Shown piece by piece: positions 1,519 through 43,700 of a DNA stretch of 64,000 bases. Each line of letters starts with the position of its first letter. Position 1 is the stretch's first letter. A program made the translations under genes and the position numbers. Below the pieces are notes generated by a model. The model saw only the letters and a list, made by a program, of their open reading frames with translations, was not told the origin of the DNA and ran no database searches. Source of the stretch: an uncultured bacterium (GTDB lineage: Bacteria > Omnitrophota > Omnitrophia > Omnitrophales > Aquincolibacteriaceae); NCBI GenBank assembly GCA_964385615.1, contig CAYLPP010000007.1, forward strand, positions 44,426 to 108,425, read 5' to 3'.

Positions 1519-1525
1519 ATTCACC

Positions 1526-6891: not shown

Positions 6892-6935
6892 GGGGGTGAA
6901 TTATAGCAAAAAAGCGGGGGCCGGCCTACCCTTAA

Positions 6936-10604: not shown

Positions 10605-10902
10605 GGCTTAGATAATCCGATAAAGCCTTACGCGTAGATTCCACTTCAGAAGCACGTCGGTCCCGAGCGCTTTGTTCAAGCCTTAATCCGATCCGGCTTA
10701 GCTCCTCAAAGCCGTACCCCGCGCCGGCACCTTTGAGTTGATGCCCTAGGGTCTGGATCTTGCTAAATTCTTCCGCTTCCAGCCACTGCGCGATTAACGG
10801 GACCTCGTTTTTTCGTTTTTCAAGAAAAGACGGAATAAGATCCGCGAGGTCCTTGTCCGCTTTAACCAGAATTTTTCCCCCTCGAAGTTCTTCGTTCATC
10901 AC
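10573..10902 (-). CDS. Stand-alone Hpt (histidine phosphotransfer) protein
   Basis: 109 aa. CheA-P1/Hpt-type phospho-His motif GHQLKGAGAGYGF. Start overlaps the RR stop (ATGA); the 3' end overlaps the HK start, consistent with translational coupling. Confidence 0.6.
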   Translation of the reverse strand: MMNEELRGGKILVKADKDLADLIPSFLEKRKNEVPLIAQWLEAEEFSKIQTLGHQLKGAGAGYGFEELSRIGLRLEQSARDRRASEVESTRKALSDYLSRVEVIYDRAA

Positions 10903-11507: not shown

Positions 11508-11635
11508 CTATTTAAAAGTTAACACATTCAGTTCAATTTACAAATTTGGTGCAATTGGGGCATTTGGAGCGCTTTTAAAGAAAAGAAAACGGGCAGAGTA
11601 CGGGCGCGGAATGAAACTGAAATTGAAAGCGAAGA
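11508..11635. promoter_or_regulatory. 128-bp spacer between the 2,650-aa gene stop and the response-regulator start (candidate promoter of the phosphorelay operon)
   Basis: AT-rich stretch (tttaaaagttaacacattcagttcaatttacaaatttggtgcaattgg). No convincing intrinsic terminator hairpin. Confidence 0.25.
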
Positions 11636-14600: not shown

Positions 14601-17600
14601 AGAATCCGCTGAAACCCATCATGAGCCGTAAGGAATTCTGCCGGAATAGCCAGAAAATCTCCCGCGGCATCTTCTCTTCCCGTTCTCACTTCAGACCGAG
14701 CAGCAGCCGCGGCGGCTGTATCCGACAGCTGAACAACGGAGATTTGTTTAACTTTCGCGCGCTTAAGCTCATTAAGAATCCGGGCAACATCCTTAATCAC
14801 CGCGAATCCGCGTTTATCTTTTTTAGGGTAATAAACCCGGCCATTCGCAACGATCGCGACTGTCTTTTTAAGCTCAGCCTCACTCTTCTTACTCATTGCC
14901 GGCAATTTAACATCCGTTTCATTCTCGACAACAGCGTTTAAGGCATTCAGCCTGATCTTCCCCCAGAGCACATACGTGACCCAGTCATCAAATGTAATAC
15001 CCGTTCCTTTTAATACCCCCCAACGAAGAACAGCGGCTGAGACCCCGATACCCGTCAAAAATGCCCCCAGCAAAACTAGAGCTGGTTTCAACAGAACGGT
15101 GGCACCCAACAAGCCAATAACCGTCAGGGTCAAACCCACCGCTAAAAGCACTAGTGAAAACAGCGAAACATATTTCACTAACACCGCGTAACCTGTATCC
15201 AGACTTTCCATGTAATCGTTCGCCGCCCGCAAAGAAACTCGGGCAAGCTTACGGTAAGTCGTTTCTTTCGCCGCTAAATCCTTCAATTGACGCGTGTCTC
15301 TCAGGATCGTTCCCTTCTGATCGGCTTTAAGATCAAGCGTGGTTTTCTCCGCGGACTCCAGCACACTCTTACGGAACGGAAGAGTCGCGAAGAACAGTTC
15401 AGAAAATGAATAAGGTGAATCCCCTTTGCGGAATTCAAAAACAATCATCATCGCCGGAACAGGCAAAAGAACCGCGGCGATAAGCAGTGCGACCGGAAAA
15501 ACCAGAGTCCAACCAAATAAAAACGCAGCGGCCAGATAAAGCGCGGAAAGCGCGAGAATCGCCAATGAAAGCCCCCGGGCGATCCAAACACCGGTTTTCT
15601 CATCCAGCTCAGTAAGATTCGCAAGGGTCGTTTTCTTTACCAGAGCGTCTTCCGCTTCGCTGGTTTCGTGATCCAGAATATGCCGGCCCCGATTCGCGAG
15701 TGCCCGTCCATTCACTCCGCCAAACTCGTCAGCGTCGCGGGTGTCCCGGCTAAAGCGGGCAGCGTCGGCGTTCGCTTTCGCGCGGTTAGTCTTTATCATG
15801 TCCTGGAGATAATTCGCCCAAATACCAAGTTTTGTTAATTTTTCAACATCCTCCGCATGCGAAGCCGGTAAATCGGCCCGATCAACCCCGGCGGCAGCTC
15901 TTTGAAGATGATGCCGCAGCGCTTCAACCGCGAACTGAAGACGCTCAACCCGGTCAAGCGTAATCTGGAGCGACCACTGAGCGTCATTCACATCCATCCC
16001 TTCACCATCCGCTCCGTAATCAATAAAAATATCCTGAACGTCGCTTTTCAGAGTTTCGTAATGAGTGGTCAGCACCGCCATAAGCGCGTCAAAGTTTCCA
16101 TTTTTTATGGCAGTATAAATTTCAAGCGGAGAAATCGGCTTTACGCTGGTTTTGGTTTTCTTGGTACGGGCTTCGGCGATCGCGGCTTTATTAGCCGCCG
16201 CCTGTTTCTCTTTAGCTTTAAGCGCCTTAATCAGGGCTTGGGTCGCGGCAGCAACATCACGGTCCCTTCCTTCACTTTCATTGGGAAACCTTGTGTCCGG
16301 TGAGGAAAAAGCCGGAAAAACGCCTTCCTGATAGGATTGAGCCGTGAAATGATCGTTCCCATATCCGGTACCGTCAACGCCGTCTAATTCTTCGGGAGTA
16401 TAAACCATTCCATCAACTTGAACGGGCGGCGCCGGCGCCGGCTCCCCAAACCCCGCTGATGAACGGGTTAATTCCCGATGGCGGAGGCGAAGCGCGTCAG
16501 TATTCATGGGCCTTGAAACCCCCGCGCGTATAATTTTCCGGGCTTGCGGATCTTGAAATAAAAGTTTGGCTTTTTCCGATCTTGAGCTCGTATCTCCAAT
16601 CGCCTTAGCGGCCTCAGTGACCAAGGTCAATAACTCAACCTGAAGATCATCCAGTTTGTCTTCGATACGCCCCAATTCTTTTTCCAGAGCTTTCTGCGAC
16701 TTTGGATTCGTAAAAAGGGCCGTGAGGTGCTCTTCCAGCGGAATCCGCTCCGGTCTGCCTTTCACGGGGATCCACGCGATCTTTCGATACTCCGGTGAAA
16801 CGTCGAGCAAATTATTATAAATCCCGAGAATTCTGCGGAGCTTGGATTTTAACGGCAAAGGGGTCGATTTCGCATCGAGCAACTCCTGAAGTTTTTGCTG
16901 AATCGCGTTCCCTTTAGGTTTCGCGGGCGCTTTTTTAGGAACTTTCGTCCCTCCGGCAGCGCTGGTTCCGCTCAATGGCGGAGGAGCGCCTCGAAAAGGA
17001 GGGGGCAAAACAGGTTCCGGCAGGTCCGGTAAATCGGACGGTGTGTCTCCCATTGAGCTTCCAACCGGCGTTTCCGCTCCGGTTAAATCCGGTTCAATAA
17101 CCGGCGCGGCTGTTAATTTCGCGGCACCTGTTTTAATTTTAGAAATAGCTGCTTTTAATTTTTTCGCTACGTCCGCAAAATGGTTGATTTTCCCAGTATC
17201 GGTTTTCCTACTAGCCCATCCCGAAATCACTTCATCCTCTTTAACATCAACAGCCCTAATGTTTGATAAATACTCGATATTCCCCTGAATCGCAGTCAAA
17301 GCGCCTATAAATCCAGACAGCGTTCCTTGGGTATTTAGACTATCTAAGGTTAATGCTGCGGGATCTATTTTTGAGAACTCGCGGTTCCCTTTTCCCAAAA
17401 TCCGGTCAAGAAAATTTGTAATAACAGCACTTGGCCCCCGAACAGCAACCACATCGCTGTTGTTCTTCGTTTTATCACCTGTCGTATACGCTTTTAGCAG
17501 TTTTTCGAGCGCGATAATCTCAACCATCACCTCACGGATGGCCATATCCCCGGCAACGATATCAAGACCCGGACGGGGAGCCGTGATCGCCCGGACTTCA

Positions 17601-19591
17601 GAACGGCTGGGGGTGAAAAGAGCCACGGTTCCGTCAGGACTTAATGAAGGAGGGATAGCGACCGCGGACGGCTGACCGGAAGAAACCCGCGCGTAGAGAT
17701 CTTTAATCTGAGGGAGATTCAGCTTTCCTCCGCTGGCCAATTCTTTAAAACCGCTCAAAAAAGCCTGGGATTTAATCTGAAATTTTTCAACCAGATCCGC
17801 GAGGGTTTCCTGGTTGAGTTTCTCGACTTCGTCATTGACCCCTTTAAGAATTTCGTCGTCATTTTTAACCGCGGCGTTAAAACCAAACCGGTCGGCGTAG
17901 TACCGGAAAAGCTGATCAATATACTTGGTATATTCTCCGCTCTTCTCGATCCTCCCCTGATTTGAAAGCTCGCGGATGACATCATCGCGCCAGGTCTTGA
18001 TATTCCGGCGGAAATCCGGCTCGCTCATTTCGCTGACCATTTTCAGCGAAGCGTCCTTCACGAAAGCGTCATAAAGGGTCGTTTTAAGGAACCGTTTGTA
18101 GGACAAATCCCCTTTCATCACGGGCGCGTAATTTTCGTGGCCTTCCAGGGAGTTCATTTTCGGCATGATCACCGCGTAGGAATAATGGCGCTCTCTCAAA
18201 CGCTGTTCAAAACCTTCCGCGTGAAAACCGCCGGTCAGCACGATCACACCCTTGGTTTTTTCCCGGTCCATAACCTTTTCGATCCGATCAAGGAAAACCG
18301 AGTCACGCTCCATCGCCAGTTTGTAAAACTTAAGAGCCGGCGCTAAATCCGGAAAGACACTTCCCGCGAGACTCTGAAAAGACGCTTCGTCGGCGCTGTA
18401 TTCATTAAACTGTTCACGAGTCCATTCGAGGCGCGTCAGGTCGGTTAAAACCCTCAACCGGTGATAGCGGACTGAAAGGTCTTTTTGTTCCGGGGTTTTG
18501 GCAAATTCATTTTCATAATCCGTCAAAAGCGTTTCAAGTTCTTCAAAAAGCTTGGTGCCTTTTATCATGCCGAGAGTTTCCGTCTGGCCAAGCAGTTCGC
18601 GAAGCCTGGGGGTAAGCTTGGGAGTGATATTAATTTTCTTTCCGGAATCGACCAGGTATTTCAGGAAAGTTCCCGCGTCAATCTGCCCGGTCACAAAGGT
18701 CTGATATTTCTCGTTAAATTCTTTCATATCACCGGAGGTCAGTTTGCCTTCGATCTTGGTCTTCAGGTGGTCAGCCATCCGGCGGAGCGTGACTTCAATA
18801 TTTTCATCCTGGAGCCGGTCTTCGGAAACCGCCGCTTTAAACACCGGGAAGAGATGAGGGAAACGGTTTTCAGTCAGCCGGGAACCTTGGGGGTCAAGAG
18901 TCTGAAGGAACTTCATTAGTTTAAAGAGATCCAGCTTCTCATCACGGAAAGCGGTGACTTTTTCATGAAAAGCATTAAATTCCGGCGAATAGACCGACTT
19001 CCGCTCGCGGTCAAAACCATCGCTCATTCCCTGAAAAGCCTTCAGAAGTTTTTCTTCCAAAGCGTCCGCCTGAAGGTAAGCGTCGTGATTTTCCTGATAC
19101 AGCCCCCACTGCTCCAGGCCGACATAGGTGGCCGGCATGGGGCTGAAAATCGCGGCCATTTCAGAACCGCTCAACTCCCCTTTCGCGGCGTATTCCGCGA
19201 GCACTTTCTTTTTAACGAATTCATCCGGGAAAGTTTTAAAAAGAAGCGGATCAAGATTGCTTTGCGTGCCTTCCACAGCGACAAAGCGGATGTTGAACTG
19301 CTGTTGAAAAAACTCGATCAGGGCCTGCATATTTTTCTGAGCGTCAACAATGGCGTGCGCGTCCTGAATATAAATGACAAAACGGTCGGAAGAATCCGAA
19401 TGAGAAAATTCCTGAAGGGTTCCGAGTTCCGCGGGAAAAGTCATCTTGTCGGGAATTCGGACTTCGGTGGACGTTAAATTAGAAGGACGGGCAACAGTAA
19501 CGGCGGGCTCAGCGGACACCGTTGATCCGGAAAAGCAGACCAACGTCGCCAGCGCGATTGACTTGAAATATAAGTTTTTTTTGATCTCCAT
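11636..19591 (-). CDS. Giant secreted/membrane protein of unknown function (~2,650 aa): signal peptide, TraB/GumN-like N-domain, Pro-rich linker, 4 TM helices, duplicated C-terminal module
   Basis: ORF track 11636..19606 uses a GTG start. The ATG at 19591 gives a classic Sec signal peptide MEIKKNLYFKSIALATLVCFSGSTVSA|EP. No in-frame stop for about 8 kb. Protein-like features are listed in separate entries below. Confidence 0.8.
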   Translation of the reverse strand: MEIKKNLYFKSIALATLVCFSGSTVSAEPAVTVARPSNLTSTEVRIPDKMTFPAELGTLQEFSHSDSSDRFVIYIQDAHAIVDAQKNMQALIEFFQQQFNIRFVAVEGTQSNLDPLLFKTFPDEFVKKKVLAEYAAKGELSGSEMAAIFSPMPATYVGLEQWGLYQENHDAYLQADALEEKLLKAFQGMSDGFDRERKSVYSPEFNAFHEKVTAFRDEKLDLFKLMKFLQTLDPQGSRLTENRFPHLFPVFKAAVSEDRLQDENIEVTLRRMADHLKTKIEGKLTSGDMKEFNEKYQTFVTGQIDAGTFLKYLVDSGKKINITPKLTPRLRELLGQTETLGMIKGTKLFEELETLLTDYENEFAKTPEQKDLSVRYHRLRVLTDLTRLEWTREQFNEYSADEASFQSLAGSVFPDLAPALKFYKLAMERDSVFLDRIEKVMDREKTKGVIVLTGGFHAEGFEQRLRERHYSYAVIMPKMNSLEGHENYAPVMKGDLSYKRFLKTTLYDAFVKDASLKMVSEMSEPDFRRNIKTWRDDVIRELSNQGRIEKSGEYTKYIDQLFRYYADRFGFNAAVKNDDEILKGVNDEVEKLNQETLADLVEKFQIKSQAFLSGFKELASGGKLNLPQIKDLYARVSSGQPSAVAIPPSLSPDGTVALFTPSRSEVRAITAPRPGLDIVAGDMAIREVMVEIIALEKLLKAYTTGDKTKNNSDVVAVRGPSAVITNFLDRILGKGNREFSKIDPAALTLDSLNTQGTLSGFIGALTAIQGNIEYLSNIRAVDVKEDEVISGWASRKTDTGKINHFADVAKKLKAAISKIKTGAAKLTAAPVIEPDLTGAETPVGSSMGDTPSDLPDLPEPVLPPPFRGAPPPLSGTSAAGGTKVPKKAPAKPKGNAIQQKLQELLDAKSTPLPLKSKLRRILGIYNNLLDVSPEYRKIAWIPVKGRPERIPLEEHLTALFTNPKSQKALEKELGRIEDKLDDLQVELLTLVTEAAKAIGDTSSRSEKAKLLFQDPQARKIIRAGVSRPMNTDALRLRHRELTRSSAGFGEPAPAPPVQVDGMVYTPEELDGVDGTGYGNDHFTAQSYQEGVFPAFSSPDTRFPNESEGRDRDVAAATQALIKALKAKEKQAAANKAAIAEARTKKTKTSVKPISPLEIYTAIKNGNFDALMAVLTTHYETLKSDVQDIFIDYGADGEGMDVNDAQWSLQITLDRVERLQFAVEALRHHLQRAAAGVDRADLPASHAEDVEKLTKLGIWANYLQDMIKTNRAKANADAARFSRDTRDADEFGGVNGRALANRGRHILDHETSEAEDALVKKTTLANLTELDEKTGVWIARGLSLAILALSALYLAAAFLFGWTLVFPVALLIAAVLLPVPAMMIVFEFRKGDSPYSFSELFFATLPFRKSVLESAEKTTLDLKADQKGTILRDTRQLKDLAAKETTYRKLARVSLRAANDYMESLDTGYAVLVKYVSLFSLVLLAVGLTLTVIGLLGATVLLKPALVLLGAFLTGIGVSAAVLRWGVLKGTGITFDDWVTYVLWGKIRLNALNAVVENETDVKLPAMSKKSEAELKKTVAIVANGRVYYPKKDKRGFAVIKDVARILNELKRAKVKQISVVQLSDTAAAAAARSEVRTGREDAAGDFLAIPAEFLTAHDGFQRILPRLTALEAGRARGSYSALSADEIRILSIDLINQIVALENLRARGFSPDALLAQVRNAFTNLFGGVQELLLTDPANVPRQGIAVLASYNLALRLMFDATARDANQNRVVLANLPADRVDFALDLFDQIARLDFTLGAELQRGQPGYGAFEKAKGYAAAIRTAYPASARAEIRIEPESQENIQTRADLTAVAARSETRVSIQNAESLLSSAVKRVYEKNSYGGVIGQIDPSRDHAVRKTGTKTLRAPTQIGDVDVILLALKDFAVIARAAESGNIEGDAARVAKVRSSALGYISVIVSDLLDANSSYAGGLPAILKAADGLYDLAGSLLLNDNAPRDSSGLKAVQPNLPSEILNLGLTLFSNAVQAYGIINSISPGFLGDNNLQARSEQYLAKVGTQYAPVISVRDQLFKGVVRTITPSDPLQMPAKRVTAPLISVGNTGDVGILNLDSVLNVAGGLVTLSDNPSLNRTAAGSLEPVLQSLTSPNSNLAGTWDAQLKIADQLYDWASQMVLNNQPGVERDGNNLKPVLSGRSASTIDLARKLFEEAVRVYARIETSAPAGFLGENNLKDRSQQYLDKLNAAYPARSEVRLAEAPIAVAPVISVTTAQEREAAVTAPLETAQQPTGIDALAPIADIANQVLSQFSGDADLNQISQVFDAISAQRRDSVIKPAQEQIRNGISAYLRTAVEKGQNLSAVILSPEFEAEIGRLTSAFAEQVFSDEQVRQAFASSLQEKFSAQLQRYVINSVILGYNLQQAQAAQNIQIDSEAQTQFIALDQKELETRYQALLTANKGTLVIDGVQMPANLFASATPDSKTSYVLDASFANEDYMKVLLEAEHPIAVAYAVGTPGEKTTMGFAKELPGLMRMIFATLGSRNDQPVDLNRLSKVNFSPDARKTLVGTRLAVKNGGEQGDTVVQAQENFVNVVGESQFLPLMVRFLATSLVNQLPEVRQDGSRIVVLDEKHLAIFLNLVKKLTTEYRSEIRAAQSA
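12780..13710 (-). repeat. Internal tandem duplication (~185-aa module x2) in the C-terminal part of the 2,650-aa protein
   Basis: Copy 1 …SSYAGGLPAILKAADGLYDLAGSLLLNDNAPRDSSGLKAVQPNLPSEILNLGLTLFSNAVQAYGIINSISPGFLGDNNLQARSEQYLAKVGTQYAP…. Copy 2 …NSNLAGTWDAQLKIADQLYDWASQMVLNNQPGVERDGNNLKPVLSGRSASTIDLARKLFEEAVRVYARIETSAPAGFLGENNLKDRSQQYLDKLNAAYP…. Confidence 0.75.
15000..15600 (-). other. Two TM hairpins (4 helices) in the middle of the 2,650-aa protein
   Basis: GVWIARGLSLAILALSALYLAAAFLFGWTLVFPVALLIAAVLLPVPAMMIVFEF (15430-15600) and VSLFSLVLLAVGLTLTVIGLLGATVLLKPALVLLGAFLTGIGVSAAVL (15010-15180). Confidence 0.7.
18150..19400 (-). other. TraB/GumN/Tiki-like domain candidate at the N-terminus of the 2,650-aa protein
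   Basis: After the signal peptide: …RFVIYIQDAHAIVDAQKNMQALIEFFQQQFNIRFVAVEGTQ…. About 380 aa later: …KGVIVLTGGFHAEGF…. This gives an early (D/E)…H / VEG block and a late G-G-x-H block, which is the general layout of TraB/PrgY/GumN-family domains. Confidence 0.3.
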
Positions 19592-19749
19592 AGAATCGCC
19601 GTCCACAGCCCTTTATTAAAGGCTTTTATAAAGGTGACTCTAGAAGTATAGCACCCTCTATAGGAATTTTCTAATGACAGGTAGGGCTGTGGAAGGAATG
19701 CTAGTTCTTACTAGAGAATGCTACTTTCCCCTAGGGAGCAATACCAGGC
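19592..19749. promoter_or_regulatory. Palindrome-rich, AT-richer spacer between the two giant genes (candidate promoter/RNA structure)
   Basis: An 11-bp perfect inverted repeat, tccacagccct (19602-19612) / agggctgtgga (19683-19693). Smaller palindromes tatag-N6-ctata (19647-19663), ctagt-N4-actag (19701-19714) and ccctaggg (19729-19736). On the coding strand, TAGAAA-N17-TATACT precedes the RBS region. No U-tract after the giant-gene stop. Confidence 0.3.
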
Positions 19750-25700: not shown

Positions 25701-28700
25701 TGTCCGCCGGATAACCCGCGTCTTTCATCTCCTGCGGAAGATTTTCATAGCTGAGTTTGTCCACGATATCCGAGCGGACTTCCTCAATTGTTTCAGTGCT
25801 GACGCCAAGCCCGTACACAAATTCCATATCCGCGATGAACCGGCCCAGGCTGGGAGCGGCTTCAAAAGCCTTATCAAGATACCGATTCGCGGCTTCAAGC
25901 GCGTTCGCGTTCGCGCGGCGGACGCTTTCAGCCGTCAGATCCGCCTGAAGAATCCAGAATTCTTTGCCATTTTCATCGATCGCCGGCAGGCTTCCGTCAC
26001 CCCATGAGGTCGACGAATCTTGAATCATGATCGCCAGAGTTTCATCATCCATCCCGGCCAGATGCGCGTCAACCTTGGGCGAGGAAAACGAGGGAACCGG
26101 TCTACGGCTATTGAGCGCGTCCATAGCCTTATGAATGAAGACACGGCCTAAGGCGAGTTTCAGCGAGCGGACAAGGTCCGCTTTATCTTCCGAATGAGCC
26201 CGAACTCCCATCGCTTTTCTAATCAGGACGTCATAGGCGTCTTCCGGGTTATCCTGCATCCCGTCAATACCTTCCGTTTTCATGAACTGATAAAGCTCAG
26301 CGGCGTTGTTTAAACCATAAATAGGCATCAATCCCCCAAAGTTGATCAGGAGACGGGCCTGCGTAAAATCAATATCCGTTGTCCGGCCGAATTGACCGGC
26401 GAAGAACACCAGCATCTGTTCATTGATCCACGGGAATTCCTCAGCAAGTTTCGCGAGCTCCAGATCCGAAACCGTTCTGAAAGAACCGTCCGGATTGCGG
26501 AGCTTATCACGCAGATACGACGCGGCTTTACCGGCCGTTTTCATCTGTTCCAGATTCATGCCCGCGAAAGTCTCGGCGGGAATCTGCGACAGCATCGGTT
26601 CATCCGGAATTCCCGGATCCAGCATTTTGGCGATTTCGAGTTCCTTACCCGTAAAGCCGTGATCCGCGGCCAGCTTTTGAAGATTCCGTCCGGTCAGCTC
26701 ACCCAATTTCAAGCCGTCGGTCAATTTTTCAGTTTCACGCGCCAAAGCGTAATATCTCTTCAGCTTATCTCCAAGATCAGCACCGAAGAATTCAACAAAA
26801 AGACCATCCATAAAACCTTCGCCGACGCGGTCGAGATCTTCCTTCAGCTTTTTGGCTTTTGCCTGAATTTCAGCTTTCTTTTTCGGATTCTGATTCTCAG
26901 GCTTCTTGAACTCTTCATTGAGATCCGCGATGTCTTTCTTGTATTTTTCATAGGCATCCGTGCGCATTTTGACAAAGGCCGCGCCATCCGCTTTTTCGGT
27001 GAAGCCGGCAAGCTTGATCAGCATCTCATCGCTCATACCCGGAATCGCGGCCTGGAGCGCGCCGAGAACCTTCGCAAGGGCTTTATCCCCGCGGCCCGCG
27101 TTGGTCTTGGCCAACTGAGCCACACGGGCTTCAAGAGCCGCGCGGAGAAGGCTATTCGGAACAAACCCGCGGAAGAACGTATTCTGCTGGAGACCGATCA
27201 GCCAGCGTCCGACCGTAGCCGGCGTTTGAGCCAGACGAACCTTTTCACGAAGCTTTTCAAGCTCCGCTTTCTTAGCCGGAAGTTCCGGGCTCTTCTGCTT
27301 TTCAAGATCCGCGACTTCTTTCTGGAGATCTTCCGTGCGCAGTGCGTCAATCTTCGCCCGGAGTTCTTTAGCCGCCGGCGTATCTTCCTGTTTCTTTTCA
27401 ACAAACTCTGTCTGATAACGTTCACTCAGATGCTTCTGATGCTCCTTATAATCGTAAGCACCATCACTGTTGATCAGTTTCTTCAAACCGAAAATACCCA
27501 CCCCGATAGCGAGACCTAATAGGGCCCAGCCGGAGAGAACCCCCGCGAATGCCAACCCAATTCCAAGAACCGGCAGAGCCACGGCGGCCGCGAAACCTAA
27601 TTTCCGATTCACGGACCAAAGCTTTTCAATTCCCAGCCCGATTACCGCCCCAAGCGCGCCATAGGTCATTCCGACAAAAGTCATGGTAATCATACCGGCG
27701 ATACTAAAAACAGACGTCTTCTGGAAGAAGGCCTTGGTTGTCTCCCAGGTGCTCGCGCTCTTTTTAAGCGGTTTCGCGTGTTCATCTCCGAGCACGAAGC
27801 GCAGGAGTTTCGCGGCACCCGTAATGAGGCCCCAGCCGGTCGGAAGATTGATAATCATCATCGCTATTTTCTGGGTTAAGGGAACTCTTCCGACGGCAGC
27901 GTTATAAGCCTTCCAAACCAAGTTTTTGTCAGCAGGTTTCAATTCATCAATAATCACCGGCTGCTGAAGTTTTTTGAGTTCTTCGGCGGTTTTGAAGAGC
28001 TCTTCAACCGTCATGCGGCTGAAAACTCTTTCACCGAGCCCCTGGCGAATCACCTGCAGACTGTCCATCATTTTCTGAATCTGCTGAAGACCGGCCTGCG
28101 GGTGGAAGGCCATCAGACGTTCCACAAAAACCTGCCGGTGAACTTCGTTAGTGAACGGATCAAAAGCAGGATTGTCAGCCCTGAAAGTATCCAAAATATT
28201 CTCAACGGAATCCGCGCGGCGCGCGACGAAAAGGTTCAGCACCGTTCCAATAACCGGCATGGCGTAAATCGCTCCGCCGCGGATCTTCTCAACCATCGCG
28301 GGAATTCCCTGAGTGACCATCGGCATCCAGCGGGACCGGGCAACCACCGCCGCGACCACACCCACCGCCGGAAGCGCGACTAAAAGAGCCGCGGTGAAAC
28401 TAACCGCGACGACCGCGGCCGCAACCGCCGCTGCAGCGGCGGAAAGCCCCACAATAGCACCCGCAATGGTCCAGCCGTCAGTCTGCGTCATCGGTTTGGT
28501 TTCATCAAAAGTGCCCCAGGCAAACGCGTGGAACTGATATTTCAGATAGGAATAACTGGTCACGCGCACCCAAAGTGCGTTGAAGGTCTGCTTGAAATTA
28601 GTCAGATTCTGCCAGACCCCCTGCATGAAACCTGAGAATCCCCGGCCAAGCACGGGATATTTGAAGAAGCCTTTCTTGAATTCAAGGACTTCATTCTTGT

Positions 28701-31700
28701 GCAATTCCATCTCATTGAGCTGGCGGGCACGGGCAGACTGCACTTTGGCCATCTCGCGCTGAGCCGCCGCGTCCTTCCAATGTTTCTGGAAGGTTGTAGT
28801 CACGCTGTTGTAAAAAACGCGATCCCGATGATCATCTGAAAGCAGGTAAGCCCGATTCTGGCGGGCGAAATAAGCGCCCAAGTCAGCCTGGAAGCTGTTG
28901 GAATTCAGGAGCAATGAAAGATCCGTCTGATCAAACCGGGGAGGAAGCCCGATAGAAGTCTGAGTTCCCTGGAAGCTCTGCGCGCGGGACAGCAGGCCGT
29001 TCATCGCGCTCACGGCCGGTGAAGCCAAACCATAACGGCCGGCCGCCGAACAGGACTCGCAGCCTTTTCCATAAAGGGCTTCCACCGCGCGGCGGAGCCG
29101 GTAGCTCATCTGCTGAGACTGTCCGACAGCTTTCATCACTTCGGCCGCTCTGCGGGAATTGGCGGCATGCGTTTCCGCGGTTTCAGTGCCGAGGCGCTGA
29201 TCGCGCTGAGCCGCCGCGAGGTTATAGCTGAGCACGTTAAGCACCGCGTTGTAAGCGGACTGTTCATCCGTGATCGTAAATCCGGTCAGCTGAGTTGAAG
29301 GCGGAAGTCTTCTTCCCCCGCCGAGTGCAACCTGAATATCTTCCATATCTCTTCTCTGATCAAAACCACGGCTCATCTGGGTCACTTCGCCGATCGAAAG
29401 AAGACGCTGAGCAAGATCTCCGGCGCCGTCACCGTCAAAATGGCCTTGTCTTTCAAGATGCAGGGCCGCGGCGATGACCGCTTTACGGATATCATCCTGA
29501 GTCGAAGACGCCGCGTTCACGTTAAAGGCGGAATTGCCGGTAGCCTCATAAAGGGCCTGCAGACCGCTCATCAGATTGGCGGAATAAATGCTTCCTGAAA
29601 GCATGGCCGTAACGAAGCGGTACATGTTGTAGCCCTTCTGGGTCGCGTAGCGGTCGCCGATCACGCCGATCCGCTTGAGCTGGCCCACAAAACCTTCCGC
29701 CTGGGCGCCCAGATTGGAGCTATTGCTCAAATCATCCGCGATCTTTTCAGGATTATTCAAAAGGTTAGCCAGACTCGCGCTGCTCTGCTCTCTCTTTTCC
29801 GTGGAGAGACGGCGGGTTTCACGCGTCGTCAAAATATATTCGCCAAACAGAACCGCCGTCTGCACAAACTGAATCAACAGAGGATTGCGGGTCTGATTGC
29901 CGGAAGTGCGGGCATAAGAGAACGCGCCGTCTTCATAGCCTTCGGATTTCTTGATATTTTCAAGACGGAAAAGACCGTTTCCGGATTCCAGCGCGGATTC
30001 AACGCTAAACACTTCTTCCGCGTTGAACGCTTCAAAAATATCCGCTTTTGAAATCCCCGCCTGCTCCAGTTTGGCCTGCAGAGTCAAAGTGGTCGTACGG
30101 CTTCCGTCGCCCATCTTACTTCCAAAAATCTCATTGATGATATTGCGCACTTCACCGCGGACGAATTCATCCCCCGTCACGCCCTTCTTTCCGCGGGTGA
30201 TTTCGGTATCATTAATTTTGCCTTCTTCCATGTCCGCGATAATTTTGCGGAGCGCGTCAGCCTTGGGCCCATTCTTGGCGTTCTTCTCAAGCAATTTCAC
30301 CAGATTCTTGGTAATCATTTCGTCACGCAGAAGCGTGGTCACGGCAAAGCGCGCGGCATTGGACTGCAGGCTGGCTTCCCGGAATTCAAAGTTCAAAGTC
30401 ATGAGGTCGAGAAGGTTCGGCGCGTTATCCGTCAGGATGGTTTCCTTGCCGGCGATCGCCGTTTCATAGATCTGATTGAATTCTTCGTCAAATCCCTTAT
30501 TGCGGTCCGCTTTGAACAGACGCTCAACCAATTTAATCATATTCTTGATATCCACAACCCGCTGACGGTACAGACTCACGATATTCTGCTGTTCGGGAAC
30601 CGTGGACTGGCCATAAATCTTTTCCGCGGTCGCGGCCTGCGCTTCCGCGTCTTCAAGACGGCGTTCCAGGGTCGTTTTAAAGCTGTCATAGCCGACATCT
30701 CCCGCGGCTTCGCGCAGGCTTTCACGAAGTTTTACCTTATCGGCAAAGAGACGGATCTGACCGCTGTTACTACGGTCACGGCCGAGGGTCTGAGCGATCA
30801 GGCTGGATTCAAACAATGAAATTCCGATACCGATGACATGAGTCGCCACGTCTATTTTTCCGCCGTCCGCGGTATTATCCAGTACGTTCAAACGTTTCAA
30901 GTCGAAGGCTTGGGCGATACGCCGGCTTCCAATCACGATCTGACGTTTACCGCTTCCTGACTTAGCAATCGTGGTGACTTCTTCCGCGCTGCTTCCCAGC
31001 TGGACTTTATTCAGATTAAAGGTTTCGCTCTGACCAGCTTCATCCAAAGCCAATTCTTCGCGAACCGCGCGCTCCACTAATTCCTGCTGTTTCACGCTGT
31101 CCGTGATGAAAACAAAGTTACCGTCACCCTTTTCTCCGCGCAGGATTTCACGAACCGCTTTGCGCATGGTCGTCACAAAGCTTCTTTCACCCGCCGCCGT
31201 TGAGGTATCCATCAGCGTATCGACCTGGAGACGGCCCTTGGAGCGCAGGTAGCGCAAATCCGCCTGACTCTGACCTAACTCAACACGCTCATTGCCGGTG
31301 AAAAGCTTGATGAAATCAGGAAGGGTCGCGGAAACCGCCACAACCCCCTGCATAAACATACGCTGAATCGGAGACCCAATCTTGGTTTCAAGACGTCCGA
31401 TCGTGTCCAGATCGTACCAGGTACGGATTTTGGCCATATCCAGAGAGTTCATCTCCATTTTGCCTTCCGCGGTGAACTTGACACCTTCCATCAGGGTGCC
31501 CGCGTCCACCTGAACACCATCCACGTCCGAGGGTTTGTTGCTCCGATGCGTCCGGCCTTTTTCAGATTCATAGAAGCGGAGCTTGGCAGCCAGATCCGCG
31601 TTGTCACCCACCCGGCGGCCGCCCTTTTCGCCGACCATACGGCGCAAGAAGCTGAAGGTAAAAGCGATTTGAAGCGCGATATCTCCGGACTGCTGATCTT

Positions 31701-34700
31701 CATGGATCGCGTTGCTGTCGGCAGGCTTGAGAACCACTTTGCCGTCCAGCACGGTTTCCTTCATCCGAATGCCTTCCGTGTAGTAGAGACCCGTCAGGAA
31801 TGACTCAAATTCACGGAAAAACTTGAAGCCGAAAGTCGCACCCTCAGCCTTCAACAGCTCAATAGCTTTCTTATTAAAGAGAACCTTACCGTCTTGCGTA
31901 ATATGGAACGCCGCTTGGGAATTCAGGTTTTTGTCATCTTTGAAATCAGCAAATTTCTCGTCGAATTCCTTACCGTCTTCCACTTTCGTCAGCCGTTTTT
32001 CTTCGCCGACCAGTTCCAGAATGCGGTTCATGAATTCAAAACCGTTGCGGATGGTCGCGTCACCGGCAAACTGCGGGCGGGCGCCGTTGGCGATAATGGC
32101 TTTAATCTGCTGATAAGCGGAAATCTGGGCTTCGTCGACGATGGTCCGTGAAAATTTTGAGGCGATCGTTTCCAACAGTTCACGGGCAGCCACATTATCC
32201 CGGTTATTTTCAAGATGCGTCCGGCTGAACACGTCACTGACCAGCACCGCGTTAGGCTTGCTGTTAATCGCGTTTAAGAGGCCCGTAAAATCACTCTTAC
32301 CGTCTTTCAGGAAGGTATTCGCGTCAATGAAATCCACGCCCGCCGCACGGCCAACGACCTGGAAGCTGGCATTCATGTCGCCTTCTTTATGGGTTACATC
32401 TACATACTTAATCGAGCTATCCGGGCTTTCCAAGAGAAGCTGAACGCGTTTGCCCGGGTGATTCGCTTGATAGAAGATAGCGCCCAGAACCTGACCGCGG
32501 GACTTACCGATACCGGTACCGGCGGAAACGTCAAACCCATAATCCACGGCCAGGCCGATCATAAAGTTAGAATCACCGCGGCCGAACAAGTCTGAAGGCG
32601 GACGGTCCGTGCGGTCGCCCCGGCCTTCGCCAAAAACGTTACGCTTAGCTTCAGAACGGTTCAGAGATAATTCATAAATCGTGCCGAGCAGAACATAATT
32701 GAGCAGACGCTTGCTCGCGGACTTAAACCCTTCTGAGTTTTCATGAACTTCCATGGTTCTCTGCAATTCAGCCAGAGCCGGTTTAGCGCCTGAAGCCGCG
32801 GGATCGATCAAATCATTAATCACCGTTTCATTTCCGTCACGCACGGCTTTAGCCAAACGTTCAGCCTGTTCACCGGTCAACTTACCGAAAATATTGAACT
32901 TCGCCGCCAGGTGGAAACCCAGGCTGGCATCCGAAAGATTACCGCGGGCTCCCATCAGAGAATTGAAAATTTCAGTCGCCGCGCGGTTAAATTCAGCCGC
33001 GGCTTCCATTTTTTCGGCGTGAGTCGCGCTTTTGTTATCCAGAACGCTTCTAAACGCTTCAAGCGCGCCGTCGCTTTCCGTCAAACGGGAAACAAACGCG
33101 TCATAAAGTTCGCGGATCTGCTTACCAACCCCTTCCTTCCCTGTCTGCTCAAGAAGGTAGCTGTGCAGGAGGTCGGTCATCAGTTTTTTGGACGGATCCA
33201 CTTTTCCGACCAGCTGGGCCAGATCCGAATAAAGCTCCTTACGGCCCGATTGCCCGTTGGTCAATTCCGATTTGCGCAGACCGATTTCATTCTGCAAATT
33301 CAGCAGCTGTTCACGCAGAATCTGAACCTGCTTCTGTTTCGCTGAGCGTTCAGCATTGTATTCCGCGCGCTGATGGTCGAACCTGAAAACAAACCGCAGG
33401 AGATTCCAAAACCGGTCCGGATTCTTGGATTCGGTTCTCTGCAATTCCGCTTCCGCCTGCTTAACTTCGTTCAGCTTCGCGGCCGCCTGTTCATTCAAAC
33501 GGGCCAGATCCTCATTGGTGCTTTCCCGCGCGTCAAGAGACGCATCTTCGACTTTTTCACTCTTGGCAAGATCAAGCGTATTGATCAGGTTCTCAGCCGC
33601 GGGCTGGAGGCTCTTGTATTCCGCCTCTGAAAGCTTAATCACTACGCGCTCGCCGTTAATCGTGACGCCGAAATAATGATCTCCCTTCCCCGTCTTCGCC
33701 GCTTCAATAATCTGTTCGGCAAACGCGCGGGCCCGGGCTCTTTGTTCCATCTTCTCCTGGGCTTTTTTGTACGCTTGAGATTCTTGTCTGTAGGAAAGCT
33801 TCCCGTCTTTATTTCCGGCTTCAGCCTTAATTTCAGCCAAAACTTCACGCTCAATCTGAGCGTCACTCTTGTAGGCTTCTTTGAAAAGGGCTTCGAGGTA
33901 TTTCGCGCCGGCAGCACCCTGCTTGACCATTGCCGGATCCCCCATCGAGAAGTGTTCCACGCCCGCGCCGGAGTGAAGGGTGAAATGACCGGCTCTTCCG
34001 CCAAGTTCAGGCACAATACCCAGACGCGCGAATTCCGCGTTCAAGGCTTCAAGAGCTTCCACCCCGCGCGCCGCGCCCGTGCATCCCGCCGCGCAAACGA
34101 AGTGATTCGCTTCTTCCCAAAGAAGGAGGGTGTTTGAATCCAAACGCTCAATGCCTCTGAAAACTTCAACCGCGGACTCAATAAAAGCGTCCGCGTTATC
34201 CCGGCCGGCCTCGGTTCTCTCAAAAATCTCGCTTAATTTTTCAAACTGCACCTGGGCTTTGCTTTTCCCCGCAGGCACAGTCACGTCTTTGCCGTAGATC
34301 ACGTCAGCGATATCGATAATGTCTTCCATGCCCAGATTGGCTGAATCCAGCTTCTGAGACAATTTCACGATAATGTCCTGGCTGATATCCGATTCACCGC
34401 CGATTCTCCGGCGGGTTTCTAAATGAATTTCAGCCGTCCGAAGATGGTTCATGGCCGTTTCCATGTGACTGCCGTAAAATTCCGCCATCGTCCGAAGAGC
34501 CCCGCCGTCCGCGGTTGAAATTTCAGACAAGGCGCGCTTGCCCGCGCGGATGGATGAGGCCCAATCCATGGCCGTCTGAATGAATTCCGCCTTAAAGGTC
34601 TCGATATCGGATCCTTTCGCGATCGGCTTACCATTGAAAGAGCCGGATTCCCAGGCTTGTGTCGCGGAAATATCCGCGTAGCGCCCGGCGGCTTCAGTCC

Positions 34701-37700: not shown

Positions 37701-40700
37701 CAAGCGCTTCAAAACCTTCCCGCACGCCCGCGCCCGCGCGCAGTAATTTAAAAATGTCGTCAGCCTTCACGCCCTGAGCTTCCAGCGTGAAGCGCACTTT
37801 CATGGCGGCTAAACGTTCGGCGGCGTTCAGGTATAAGGCGGCAGGCGTATCTCCGTGAGCGCCAAGAACATCCATGAGGAAGAAAATATCGTAATTCTCA
37901 GCCAAATATTTGGCGACCTGCTCCTGATGATCCAAAGTAGCCGTTTTACGCCGGCCATACTCTGTTTTAACCAGTGAAGAAGGAATCAATTCAAAAACGC
38001 CGGGCTTCGTTTCGACCCAGATCATTTCATGGCCGTCCACGTTTTCACGCGTTCCTTCCGTCAAAGCCTCCTCTAAGGTTTCCGTTGAGCTCTCTAAGAC
38101 AGCCGTTTCTTCCGCGGCCCGGTTCGAACGTGATCTCCAGGACTGGAGTTCAGAAAGAGCCGAAGCTTCATGTCCGGTGGGCGGAGGCAGATTCGCGAGA
38201 TCCGCTTCGCTCATGGAATTCAGACGGTCCAGAGCCGCGCGGTAACGGGCGGCGAACTTTTCATTTTCAGCCCGTGTTTTCTCAGGATTCTGCTGACGGC
38301 GGGCCCGTTCACGGCTGATATCTTCCTTACGGACCTCAATATTTTCTCCGAAATATTTACGGTTAACACCGTCCCGGTCTTTCTGAGAACGCGATTCTTT
38401 TTCCAGGCGGTCCAATTTCCCTTCACTCTGAGTCTCAAGGAAACGGCGGACGCGTTCACGGCGGATCGCTTCACGCGACACCAGCATTCTCTCACCCCGT
38501 GAATTACGCACCCAGACATAACCGTTCGGACCGTCGTGAGCGGGATGAGAATCGATCCGGGTCAGCTCTCCGTGCGACAACTCACCAAGGAATTCTCCCT
38601 GAAGCCGTTCCAATTCCGCTCTCGCGGCTTCTGGAGAAATTTCATAACCTTCAGAAGTCACGTTCTTAGGCCCATCCTTAGTACCGTCGGCAGGTTTCTC
38701 GTTGGCAATCCGGTGAAGTTCAACAAGCCCCGCGTCGCCCCGTTCGGAGGTCCGCCGGGCGGCATCCGCTTCTTTGGCTTTGCGCGCTTCTCTCGCAAGA
38801 TCCTTGGACACGTCAGGATGCTTTCCGCCCTGTTCAATTTCTGAAAGTTCCCGATGCGTCAGGTCCAGAGCGCTCCGGCCTTCGGGACGGCGGGCAATTT
38901 CATCACGGATAGCCTGACGCTGTGCCGGATCCGTCGTTTTATTCAGCAGTTCGAAAAGTTCCGTGGTGTTACGTCCGGCCAGCGCGGCATGCTCATCCGA
39001 AACTTCCGGCGATTCCTTAAATTCCTTGCCGGGCTCAACATTCGCTTCCGCTTCACTGACCGCTTTCTTGGCCATTTGCTTCGGATTCATGTGCTGAGGA
39101 AGCATCATGAAAAGTAAATCCTGCGCGAGCATATGCATCTGCTCTTCACTCAGGTGGGTCCAGCCGATCATGTTCGTAAAGCGCAGAATCGGCATCGTCA
39201 GATTTTCACTCAGTATCGGCATCAATTCCATCACCGCCCATGAAGAGCTCAGGAAATAAGCGGGATTCGTCAGCGGGTTAAGCGCGTGGGCGAGAATATG
39301 GTTATTTCTCATGAACCGGGCAACCGTTGACGGCCGGAGACCGAAGATGCTGAGGAAACTGGTAATACCCACCTCAGAAAAGACCTGAGCGCGTCTCTGC
39401 GTCGCGCCGGCAACGATATTTTCAATCCACTTGGCCGGACCCGCAAGCAGATCCTTAATCAAGCTTTCACCCGTGCTCCCCACTTTTTGCATTCCCGTGT
39501 TTCCGAAGACCGCGAGCGCCGGGCCCATGCGCACGCCCATCCAGAAAGCGCCGACTACGCCTTCACCGGCTTCTTCATCCAATTTTTCATCGCCGTGTTC
39601 AGCCCGCTGTTCACGCATGGACAAATGCGATTTGGAGCCGAACCAGAATGAGCGTTTGAAAGGACTTTCGCCTTTGATCAGGATGCGCATCGCGATATCA
39701 AACTGCGCCCACTGAAGACCGGTAACAATCCCCTTCTCTCCAAAAACCAGCGTGATGTTCCAAAGCTTGGCAAAAAATCCTTTGTACTGACTGCCGAACA
39801 TAAACCGGTGAACCCACAATTCCGCGTCTTTCGCCGCTTCGCGGGACACGAACACCTGAGCGTTTTTAGCGATATTCGAAAAATCCATCCATTTTCCGAA
39901 TCCCTTGGATGGATCCTTGTTAATCAGCGCGAATGCCTTGGTCAGGAAAAGCCTCATCACACCGACACCGAGGATAATCAGACCGAAATAGAAGAACATA
40001 CTGGCCATCGTGCCTTCTTTACTGCTCTTGTATCCGCCCAACAGGTACCCGGTAAGAGTCGCGCCCGCGCCGACACCCAAAATGATGGAGGTCAAAGTAA
40101 CTGAGGCGATCTGGCTCTGAACTTCAGCCTGAAGAGCTCCTTCAATCGGTTTGGGGAACGCGCGGGCCAGAGCCGTATGTATCAAAACCATAATCGCAGC
40201 GGCAATCAGCACGCCAAGCACTGTCGCCGCGATATCACGCATCGCGTCATTGCCTGTGTAACCCGCGTAAAGATAAACACCGAACGCAGTGCCGAGCGCG
40301 AAACTCGATCCAAGAATCTTCACAGCTTGCCCCGTGCGAAGCATGATACCGCCCGCCATGAAACGAAGGGCGATGCTCAGGCCAAAAGCCAGCATCAACC
40401 CAGCGCCCGCGGCTTTTAAGAATTCATTGCCCGTCTTATCGCCATACCAGTAAAGAGCGGTAGAAACCGCGAACCCGCCGGTCAAATACATCATCAGGCG
40501 GAAATTTTGGAGCATGAATTTCTTCGCGCTTTCACGCACGGTTGATAAAACATAGTTCTTAAAGAACGATGACGCGAGACGGCTAAAGATAACCACGCCG
40601 ATAATAACCCCAATCACGACCGCCGTAGCTTCAAGAACACCCCGGACCTGCTCAAAGACCTCCGCGGTAATTCCAAACACATCCAGGATGACACTTTTCA

Positions 40701-43700
40701 CGGCGGCTCCGACAACGCTTGCAATCGATGAAACCAGGGTTATAAAATTCGAAACCGCGGTCACGACTGTCTGCACAATCGGCGCGATAAAGGCCTTATA
40801 CACCTCAACCACGACCCGGCCAACGATATAAGCGGCGACCGCCACTACAGTCACTGCGGCAAGCGCGTAACCCGCCAGTGAAACCAGTGAAACGATTTTG
40901 CTGATCAAAGTCTTAGCATGCCAATTGGCGAAACCAAGACCGGTCAAAAAGTTGGAAGAAGCCGCGAGACGGTTCATCAAATTTCCGAAAGAACCTTTCA
41001 GGAAATTCCGGTATTGAATGCGCCAGAAAGCGGCGGTATGCAGAAGCGAGCGCTGAACCGCTTTCGGCAGGAAAACCCAGACGCCGGCCAGCGGTGAAAG
41101 CACAACCTGGCCTACCCCATAAACCAGCTGAACCGCGCCGAGCGCGATCGAACGCGCCACCCCGGCAAACCCTGTCCCCAGGCCGACTACAATGTTCCGG
41201 ATGCCGGTCGCGAAAATTTGAGCGCCGGTCGCATTGGCGCCCGCGTGGAAAAGAAGTTTACCGACGGCGGAAGTTCCAACCCCCCTGACCATAACTCCTG
41301 TGAAAGCCGCTCTCAGAATAAACGCGGACCCGATAATCAGGAACGCGGCCAGCCCGATGCCTTTAAGGATGTCACTATCCAGGAGATGACCGATAACGGC
41401 CACCGCGAGCGCGGCCGTAAGACTCGCCGCCCAGGCGTTTCGGACAAGGAAAGCTCCAACGTGGTAAACCGCGAAAACAGGCGCCGTCACCAGCACAGCG
41501 AAAACGCGTCCAATCACGCTCTTGGGCACCCATCCGCCGAACAGGAGTTTCATAAAACCATTTTGAGCGGCGAATTTTTGAAGCGGCAAAATAACATTTT
41601 TGAAAATCCAGGTGCCAATAACTTTCAAGACCGCCAGGGCGCGGGTACCGAGGGCGACCATGGCCGGAATGATTCTGGGGCCCAGGATCACCAACGCGAC
41701 CGTGATAAAAATCTGAGTTAACCCGACAAGCAGGGGCGGTACCAAAACCGCGGTCATGGCAATAAAGGAGCTGATCCGGAAAACACTGCCGAGAATCGAA
41801 GTAAACGCGGCGGTCGGCGCCCATCCTGTGAAAAAGATGGCCATATAGCTCTTCAGCAGGTCCTTAACTCCCACTGGGAACGTCGTGGTAAACACTTCAA
41901 CCGCGAACGCGGCAATCACGCGCGCCGCCCCAACAATCGCCCGGATAACAAAAGGCGCCGCGACAACCAAAAGGACGGCAACCGCGACCGCGGCTAAAAC
42001 GGCAACCGCGACCCCCACGGTTCCGGCAATCGCGAAGAAGACACCGACCGAGACTGCCGTGATTACACTTATCGTCGCGACAAAGGCGGTCACGATTAAA
42101 ATCTGTGTCACCAAACCGTGCGCCGCGAAACCCGTAAAGAACGTGTTAAAGAACTTAAGTGCCGTATTTTTAAAGAACGTGGCAATTTTCGTTACGGCAA
42201 AAATAGCGGCGTTCAGCAGCTGCATTCCGCCGTTAGCCGCCATAAGAGCAAGACCGGCGATCACCTGCCCGAAACCGTAGAAAATTTGCACAAGAGCCAT
42301 TCCGACACTCTTGACGCTGCCCCAGATCGCCGTTTGGAAGACAGCCTTGAAAACCGTAACGACTCCCCTTACCGCCATCGCCGCCATGGCAGTGATGGCC
42401 GCGGGAATTTTAACGAAAATAAACCGGAGAGCCGCGCCGACGTTAAACATGACAATCGACGTGGCTGAAAGCATGGCCAGGAAGAGGCCGTCCACAAACG
42501 CCGAGGCTTTATCCTTTTCATTTCCAGTCGCCAGACTGAACCCGCTTCCAAAAATCTCAAAAGGCACCAGAAGAATTCCACCGACCATCTGAACGCCCAT
42601 GACCACGTATTTACCAATGGAGGTTTCCGCGATGCTCGAGAGAAGGCCTTTCAGGCCTGTCACTTCGAGAACCACGATAAGCGCCGCTACAAACAACCTG
42701 GCGATCCCTGACACAAGATTTTTAACGAAACGGCCGAAGGCATTATCGAGGACCGATTCATAAAGCATGCCGGTCACAAAACCCGCGGTATAAAGAATCG
42801 TTCCTATAATGGCCGCCTTGGCCACAAAAGTCAGCTGAGCCACAATAATCGCGCTGGCCAACTGCGCCGCGGTCAAACTCGCCACAGCACCCGTCGCGCC
42901 GGAAGCCGCGCCCGCGGCAGCAGCACTGCCGCCGCCGCCCAAACCACCGCCCGCCGTTAACTGCGCCGCCGCCGCAATAATACCGATCGCCATGACGGCA
43001 ACACCAATCGCCTTGATCGTATCGCTGCCCACCGCGTAACCAATTCCGACAATCGCCAAACCCACCAGGACAAAAAACGCGGCGCCGGCTAACACAGCGG
43101 CCGTCACGCTAGTCGTCGCGATTCCCAACCCCGCGAGAATCGCCGTTCCGACACCCGCGGTGAAAACCGTAATCGCGATCACAAGCGCGATCACTAAAAC
43201 AACCGCCGCGACCTTCGCGATCACCGGCAAACTGCTCCACCATGTTTTGAAGTCGGTCACGATAATCTGAGCGACGCTCGTCTTGGAGTATTGGCTCATC
43301 TGCATGACACCGCGCGCATCCGCCGTGAAACCTTTCGACTCCAGCTCCGTACTGGCGCCAAAAATCCACTTAGAAACAAAACGGTCTTCCGACTTGCTCT
43401 TGACGGTACCGTCGGCTTTGTAAGTCCAGGTCATACGGGTTTCGTCGCTGGGCTTGCCGATGCGGATATCAATCAGGCGGCCGAATTTATCCACCTGAAT
43501 ATAGGTGCGGTCCGTTTCATCCTGCTTGTACTGATTGATTTTCATGGCATCAACCAGATTTCCGTCTTTATCAAACGTAAACGAGTGCGTCTGGCCCGGC
43601 ATCCGTTTAACGTCAGCCATGTCAATTTCCCCATGACCGCGGACCGTGAATCTCCTGACCGTGCCGGGCCGGTTCAAATAAAATTCAATACTGCTGAAAC

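Follow-up and report, generated by a model that had tools for sequence, protein, structure and literature searches.

A putative SF2 ATPase module with likely kinship to the SecA motor inside a giant membrane protein of Omnitrophota

When analyzing a 64,000-nucleotide (nt) stretch of contig CAYLPP010000007.1 from an uncultured bacterium (assembly GCA_964385615.1, positions 44,426 to 108,425 of the forward strand; this whole stretch is called the window below), we noticed an ATPase-like module in the interior of a giant open reading frame (ORF). We are highly confident that the module is a superfamily 2 (SF2) ATPase, and a specific relationship to SecA is likely. The explanation that we prefer, and consider probable on balance, is an SF2 (DEAD-type) ATPase which acts on polypeptide and has the SecA motor as its nearest recognizable relative. 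For translocation as its function, the prospects come just short of even. Set beside the published modules, it is a strongly divergent SecA-like motor of giant Omnitrophota proteins. As judged from sequence, it falls outside the SecA family when this family is delimited by hidden Markov models (HMMs) and accessory domains, because the defining HMM matches and the accessory domains were both looked for and neither was found. The module and the region that follows it comprise the following elements, with amino acid (aa) numbers referring to the giant ORF.

30658..32625, minus strand: putative SF2/SecA-like ATPase module, aa 10455-11110, made up of lobe 1, an inserted domain, and lobe 2
32068..32574, minus strand: N-terminal part of RecA-like lobe 1, aa 10472-10640, from the helix before motif I to motif II and the "KAIIAxG" strand
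32500..32532, minus strand: motif I/Walker A, DVSAGTGIGKS, aa 10486-10496, with D, S, A, T, G, G, K, and [ST] invariant in all homologs
32125..32142, minus strand: motif II/Walker B, IVDEAQ, aa 10616-10621, with D, E, and Q invariant
31411..32082, minus strand: inserted domain between motifs II and III, aa 10636-10859, about 225 aa, within lobe 1
31318..31332, minus strand: motif III, SATLP, aa 10886-10890, with A and T invariant and S or T in the first position
30721..31263, minus strand: RecA-like lobe 2, aa 10909-11089; the AlphaFold2 secondary structure shows beta-alpha-beta repeats, and elements resembling motifs IV, V, and VI are present
30898..30945, minus strand: motif V-like segment RQIVIGSRRIAQAFDL, aa 11015-11030, with an invariant arginine at aa 11023
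30760..30795, minus strand: motif VI AQTLGRDRSNSG, aa 11065-11076, with A, Q, G, R, D, R, S, and the final G invariant
28438..30720, minus strand: family-specific conserved region, aa 11090-11850, from the motor to the next membrane helices, conserved in all homologs

An earlier note on this DNA, made from the letters alone, had proposed a two-lobe RecA-fold SF2 NTPase on the grounds of three motifs in the right order. All three were recovered in that order in one minus-strand ORF: VSAGTGIGKS at aa 10487-10496 (nt 32500-32529), DEAQ at aa 10618-10621 (nt 32125-32136), and QTLGRDR at aa 11066-11072 (nt 30772-30792). The distance from motif I to motif II is also as proposed, with DEAQ lying 123 aa beyond the P-loop lysine. 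The set of motifs I, II, and VI thus stands, while motif III (SATLP), which is preceded by an invariant IG..xT..G.P.Q..F stretch, had been overlooked. Motifs I, II, III, V, and VI follow each other in the canonical SF2 order and are conserved across 11 modules. The "extended second lobe" of the earlier note was not borne out: lobe 2 is of normal size (about 180 aa), with a predicted Helicase_C-like beta-alpha-beta arrangement, and the distance between motifs II and VI is long because a whole domain is inserted between motifs II and III, in lobe 1. Two details deviate from the textbook pattern. Motif VI reads QxxGRxR and thus lacks one residue of the canonical QxxGRxxR, and the arginine of motif V is shifted from its place in the ARG(T/I)D of SecA and DEAD-box proteins.

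In a protein of this length, single motifs mean little. The strict Walker A pattern ([AG]xxxxGK[ST]) occurs twice in the giant protein against 1.8 occurrences expected from composition-preserving shuffles, so the string by itself is uninformative. A Walker A followed 60 to 220 aa later by a DExx-type box was seen in about 3% of the shuffles, a pattern defined after the motifs had been seen. We regard conservation as the decisive evidence that the motifs exceed chance. When 1.84 billion representative proteins were searched exhaustively with HMMER, 12 relatives came up (E values from 2e-199 to 6e-5), all of them large proteins or fragments thereof. Where a source is named, they are hypothetical proteins from metagenome-assembled genomes of Candidatus Omnitrophota. 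With the alignment as the query, one extra relative was found among 241 million metagenome records. No relatives were found in a contig scan of genomes using the module as the query. A word-indexed search of a 5.8-billion-protein collection gave no matches with the single sequence or the alignment, which marks the limit of its sensitivity and not absence, because nine homologs that we looked up are cluster representatives in that same collection.

We aligned 10 homologous modules, later 11, with sequence identities of 28 to 51%. There are 57 invariant columns in the alignment of 10. The family patterns are D-[VI]-S-A-x-T-G-x-G-K-[ST] for motif I, [ILV][IL]-D-E-[AV]-Q for motif II, [ST]-A-T-[LM]-P for motif III ([ST]AT[LM][PT] across the 11 modules), I-[AG]-[ST]-x-R-x-A-x-G-x-D with an invariant arginine for the motif V-like segment, and an invariant A-Q-x-x-G-R-D-R-S for motif VI. 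GKS, DEAQ (DEVQ in some), and GRDR are thus kept in all homologs, which is what the earlier note had wished to see checked. With every class of catalytic residue invariant, the module is, as far as its residues can tell, catalytically competent. The relatives match the giant protein most strongly at aa ~10455-11540, that is, in the motor and a region downstream of it, and they share additional blocks with it at aa 7958-8313, 12350-13200, and 13674-14733.

The predicted structure agrees with this assignment. A single-sequence AlphaFold2 model was unusable, with a pLDDT (predicted local distance difference test) of 37, but the model built with a 10-sequence alignment reached a mean pLDDT of 66, with values of 70 to 90 in both lobes and half of the insert (about 75 to 90 in lobe 2 and about 85 in the first half of the insert). 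It contains two tandem RecA-like alpha/beta lobes, as in SF2 ATPases. Foldseek against the PDB gave 33 matches at E values of ≤1e-3, nearly all of them two-lobe SF2 ATPases, so that the fold proposed in the earlier note is upheld by the prediction. The top ranks are taken by Bacillus subtilis SecA (E = 2.2e-6) and Clostridioides difficile SecA2 (E = 1.2e-5), and the list also includes Mycobacterium tuberculosis SecA2 and Thermotoga maritima SecA. The TM-scores of these matches are about 0.2, and the relative placement of the domains in the model is for this reason not to be trusted.

Sequence-model searches tell a different story, and their results weigh against our explanation. They were run with the single sequence, with the profile, and member by member. 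No Pfam match to the module was obtained, be it to SecA_DEAD (PF07517), SecA_PP_bind, DEAD, Helicase_C, ResIII (PF04851), or SNF2, nor was there a match in NCBIfam or PHROGs. The window module has nothing in Pfam at E values of ≤1, and the best match of the family is DEAD with an E value of 0.19 in only one of 10 members. Among the PDB sequences, phmmer found nothing and hmmsearch with the profile found nothing at E values of ≤10. Consequently, the "ResIII-like" label of the earlier note is left without support. That note would have seen its proposal refuted by the lack of any family match together with a predicted structure that has no RecA-like fold; we found the first, in Pfam, NCBIfam, and the PDB sequences, but not the second, and the proposal is not refuted. 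A defense-system helicase was considered as well and rejected; PADLOC gave only single weak matches.

We compared profiles with hhalign, using a SecA reference profile of 14 SecA, SecA2, and SecA-like proteins (from the Escherichia coli K-12 chromosome and a collection of plasmids and chromids) and a DEAD-box reference profile of five E. coli DEAD-box helicases. Results are given as the hhalign probability, the P value, and the number of aligned columns.

Lobe 1 versus SecA NBD1: 85.6%, P = 5.6e-6, 128 columns
Lobe 1 versus reversed SecA NBD1 (control): 0.4%, P = 0.17, 14 columns
Lobe 1 (11 sequences) versus SecA NBD1: 74.2%, P = 2.8e-5, 70 columns; reversed control, P = 0.17-0.18
Lobe 1 versus DEAD-box: 42.4%, P = 2.6e-4, 21 columns, with the P-loop alone aligning
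Lobe 2 versus DEAD-box motifs V-VI: 35.8%, P = 3.8e-4, 61 columns
Lobe 2 versus SecA NBD2: 1.4-6.8%, P = 0.036-0.005, 31 columns
SAT segment versus DEAD-box motif III: 26.0%, P = 7e-4, 19 columns
Insert versus SecA PPXD: 0.2%, P = 0.25-0.31, 12-14 columns, the same as the reversed control
The 520 aa after motif VI versus SecA 560-835 (HSD/HWD): 0.1%, P = 0.56, 14 columns; reversed control, P = 0.42

In the alignment of lobe 1 with NBD1, Walker A falls on Walker A, and the aligned stretch reaches the Walker B region. By sequence profile, this favors homology to SecA NBD1 over a generic DEAD-box lobe 1, with scores under the usual 95% level. Against the single E. coli SecA sequence, the hhalign probability was 6%, and a low-stringency full-length alignment was unreliable past NBD1. 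The stem/motif III segment gave no hhalign signal against SecA. Alignments to SecA that can be made by eye (RRWSDGLHQA with QQSSDVALQIA, and QNYF...TGT with QxxF...SAT) were not used as evidence, the profile comparisons being without signal there.

The spacing between motifs II and III gives a comparison that, at the sequence level, is independent of the weak hhalign scores. It is 247 to 285 aa in the module family and 163 to 273 aa in the 14 SecA/SecA2 proteins, versus 31 to 33 aa in DEAD-box helicases. By virtue of this similar spacing, the module family shares the unusual whole-domain insertion of SecA. Two elements of the insert, KP and QxS.D, are invariant (KPAD and QQSSD in the family consensus). 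The insert stands where SecA has its PPXD, but its identity as a PPXD is unsupported, with no Pfam SecA_PP_bind match and no similarity by hhalign. The helical scaffold, with its two-helix finger, and the wing domain, which lie C-terminal to lobe 2 in SecA, were not detectable by hhalign. The family has its own conserved region at aa 11090-11850, which we judge from its sequence to be mostly helical. Of the claims in the earlier note, the analogy to SecA has become the best-supported specific relationship, through the top Foldseek matches, the NBD1 alignment, and the insert at the position known from SecA.

The motor lies within a giant protein with the following membrane regions.

19750-63987, minus strand: giant ORF of 14,745 aa, its reading frame still open at the window edge
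39940..43212, minus strand: upstream polytopic membrane region, aa 6926-8016, about 25 hydrophobic helices by hydropathy scan
27532..28428, minus strand: downstream membrane helices, aa 11854-12152, about 4 helices by hydropathy scan

Because the frame is open at the window edge, the N terminus of the giant protein probably lies outside the window. The hydropathy scan places the motor within a loop of about 3,800 aa that separates the ~25-helix from the ~4-helix region, so the embedding in a membrane megaprotein, as described in the earlier note, is real. The upstream membrane region is partly conserved in homologs P0002, P0004, and P0005. In the window protein and the seven homologs that reach far enough, hydrophobic helices begin 609 to 789 aa past motif VI (789 aa in the window protein); P0004 stops short of the equivalent point and was left out of this range. 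Upstream hydrophobic helices are present in all of these proteins but P0006, and in P0008 and P0009 the last upstream helix ends only about 50 aa ahead of motif I. Since helices flank the module in nearly all homologs that are long enough, its bounding by predicted membrane helices is a family trait. Self-BLAST revealed no internal repeats in the giant protein. Apart from a subthreshold PDZ near the N-terminal end, nothing in it matches Pfam or NCBIfam, and by Pfam it is without the enzyme or dockerin domains of the published Archaeovorin and Dockerin types.

SecA-like motors in such proteins have been described before. West-Roberts et al. (2023, bioRxiv 10.1101/2023.11.21.568195) reported divergent SecA_DEAD domains, grouped in a long-branch clade, in giant Omnitrophota membrane proteins, in which SecA_DEAD and SecA preprotein-binding domains occur without the scaffold or wing and beside transmembrane regions, and they proposed export of the giant protein or of accessory proteins. 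"Most" giant proteins carry a SecA-like domain according to a published statement. A 2026 preprint on complete Omnitrophota genomes describes a cluster of 20 proteins with a PF07517 architecture and 137 "Pfam-dark" long proteins (bioRxiv 10.64898/2026.06.07.730766). For this reason, the word "unexpected" in the earlier note does not apply to the module. Like those of West-Roberts et al., it comes from Omnitrophota, sits in a giant protein rich in transmembrane helices, adjoins transmembrane regions, is highly divergent, and is without a detectable SecA scaffold or wing. Unlike those modules, which Pfam recognizes as SecA_DEAD and preprotein-binding domains, the present family has neither a Pfam match nor detectable similarity to the PPXD. 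The host protein also differs from the Archaeovorin and Dockerin types in being Pfam-dark, without their enzyme or dockerin domains.

With SecA and SecA2 the module shares an SF2 two-lobe motor, a lobe 1 that aligns with NBD1, and a large domain inserted between motifs II and III. It differs from SecA in motif II (DEAQ, not DEVD), motif III (SAT, not TGT), and motif VI (GRDRS, not GRSGRQG), and there is no HMM-level match; the PPXD, HSD, HWD, and C-terminal tail are not detectable in the present protein. SecA is soluble and peripheral, whereas the present motor is covalently embedded in a membrane protein. Stand-alone truncated SecA-like proteins, such as WP_244635385.1 from Methylosinus pMSC49a and WP_164752926.1 from Mesorhizobium, consist of the motor only (SecA residues ~13-651) and show that SecA motors can exist without the HSD and HWD and in non-Sec export contexts. 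Unlike the present motor, they are separate proteins of about 640 aa from Alphaproteobacteria, about 40% identical to SecA and recognizable as such. The gene on pMSC49a of Methylosinus sp. C49 (2920-4836) encodes a SecA homolog of about 640 aa that is 43% identical to residues 24-651 of E. coli SecA and has no scaffold or wing; the operon also encodes TolC, a member of the PqqD family, and two adaptor proteins of the HlyD type. Homologs of this type are annotated as "prepilin peptidase" or "DEAD/DEAH box helicase," and by their sequence they are probably misannotated; the truncated homolog may be the motor of a non-Sec export system.

The closest rivals to our explanation keep the SF2 ATPase and change what it works on. 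In one, the module is a membrane-anchored nucleic acid helicase or translocase of the DEAD/DExH kind, acting on RNA or DNA and not on polypeptides. It resembles DEAD-box RNA helicases in the xTGxGK[ST] of motif I, the SAT of motif III, the SF2 fold, and the weak similarity of lobe 2 in motifs V to VI. It lacks, however, the Q-motif and the DEAD box (having DEAQ or DEVQ), its motif II-III spacing is longer, and Pfam DEAD and Helicase_C do not match. We consider this reading unlikely. In the other, the module is an ATP-driven conformational switch or assembly factor of the giant protein, which might gate the membrane domain or, by way of the transmembrane helices, remodel the extracellular part without threading a polymer. 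Such a role would fit a motor that is covalently fixed between two membrane regions in the family and joined to the next transmembrane helices by a family-specific conserved region, and the parts with which SecA contacts its substrate and SecY (the PPXD and the two-helix finger of the scaffold) are not detectable. The conserved insert at the PPXD position, on the other hand, suggests a ligand-binding clamp, and the literature reads related modules as export motors, and we rate the switch as improbable to the same degree as the helicase.

It is very unlikely that the module is the degenerate relic of an SF2 enzyme, without catalytic activity and retained for a scaffolding role. The shortened motif VI, the displaced motif V arginine, and a domain that no HMM recognizes would be expected of such a relic, but every class of residue needed to bind and hydrolyze ATP is invariant at 28 to 51% identity (lysine and S/T in Walker A, D-E in Walker B, SAT in motif III, and Q with two arginines in motif VI), a pattern that marks purifying selection for catalysis. 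The idea that the motifs arose by chance because the protein is so long, for which the number of Walker A strings and the missing database matches could be cited, is already refuted by the invariance of the motifs in all homologs and the predicted SF2 fold, with the other Walker A string of the protein not being conserved.

For a SecA-like motor that acts on polypeptide, the following course of events can be envisaged. The loop carrying the motor would be cytoplasmic, as an ATPase needs ATP. Binding and hydrolysis of ATP at the lobe interface would open and close the lobes and shift the inserted domain, and this work would be applied to polypeptide. The motor would amount to a SecA-like one that is permanently tethered to the membrane by covalent linkage and manages without the scaffold or wing domains. 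Its most plausible work would be the export or insertion of parts of the giant protein, or of a 2,656-aa neighbor, as proposed for related modules. The neighbor is encoded directly downstream of the giant gene.

11636..19606, minus strand: adjacent orphan ORF of 2,656 aa

The first ~600 aa of this protein are homologous to the N termini of P0008 and P0009 (E values of 1.7e-73 and 8e-67), both of which have the same motor at a later point in their sequence. A link by fusion or fission of this kind suggests, at the level of sequence, that the two adjacent genes act together. The neighbor has no Pfam match. It has about 4 hydrophobic helices near aa 1340-1504.

A bolder form of the preferred explanation, which we regard as a long shot, takes the giant protein to be a self-contained translocon on a single polypeptide, with a conduit of about 25 helices and a tethered motor, exporting independently of SecYEG. 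A new clamp domain would then replace the PPXD, a new helical region would replace the scaffold and its finger, and the cargo would be the giant protein's own segments of several thousand residues or the adjacent 2,656-aa protein.

It is an open question how bacteria insert or export proteins that run to tens of thousands of residues, and the mechanistic leads published to date are limited to embedded SecA-like motors. The concept dates from 2023, and our analysis adds no new principle to it unless the giant protein should indeed be a self-contained translocon. What is new is an example invisible to the HMMs used by the earlier studies. Standard annotation misses this motor subfamily entirely, with only 12 relatives among the 1.84 billion representative proteins. 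Because HMMs miss such motors, the published "most" may be an underestimate. While the rest diverges, the catalytic motifs are kept, as is the order in which membrane region, motor, conserved region, and further membrane helices follow each other. This defines a compact unit of about 650 to 1,400 aa that could be expressed and tested, and the 2,656-aa neighbor, found in fusion with this motor in other genomes, is nominated as a candidate partner or substrate.

Some further features of the giant protein and its homologs were noted. The sole Pfam signal in the giant protein is PDZ_6 at aa ~236-290 (63118-63282, minus strand), with an E value of 1.5e-5 and 25.1 bits against a cutoff of 27. The second perfect Walker A, ANGRYGKT (aa 13786-13793; 22609-22632, minus strand), is conserved in neither P0001 nor P0002 and was rejected as a real motif, being best read as chance. 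A conserved string, LHFHPENDPTPSSFTDG (aa 13894-13910; 22258-22308, minus strand), is also present in P0001 and P0002. It resembles the JAMM/RadC-type metalloprotease signature, HxHPxxDPxPSxxD, and might thus point to a peptidase that processes the protein itself; neither Pfam nor a search of PDB sequences supports this. The four homologs scanned in full (P0004, P0005, P0008, and P0009) are almost Pfam-dark. P0005 has a GNAT match of 20.3 bits, under the cutoff of 20.7, P0004 has a subthreshold Lactococcin match, and P0009 has a partial Peptidase_M48 upstream of the motor, at aa 1092-1139 (E = 1.8e-5; 25.1 bits, with a cutoff of 20.3). These nonrepetitive, Pfam-dark proteins contrast with the repeat-rich or enzyme-rich giant proteins usually described.

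The other genes of the window are, by sequence, bacterial housekeeping and envelope genes. Downstream, at 892-11507 on the minus strand, they encode a response regulator with helix-turn-helix and receiver domains, a CHASE/PAS hybrid histidine kinase, a MiaB-like radical-SAM (S-adenosylmethionine) enzyme, a YjeF_N protein, a protein with a double sulfotransferase domain, a BBP2 porin, and a Wza-like polysaccharide exporter. By such sequence comparisons, we place the window in an Omnitrophota lineage without a close representative genome. The MiaB-like gene, which has no record of identical sequence in an exact look-up, has 74 related loci, 64 of them at 52 to 66% identity, and the organism-named records among these 64 are all from Candidatus Omnitrophota.

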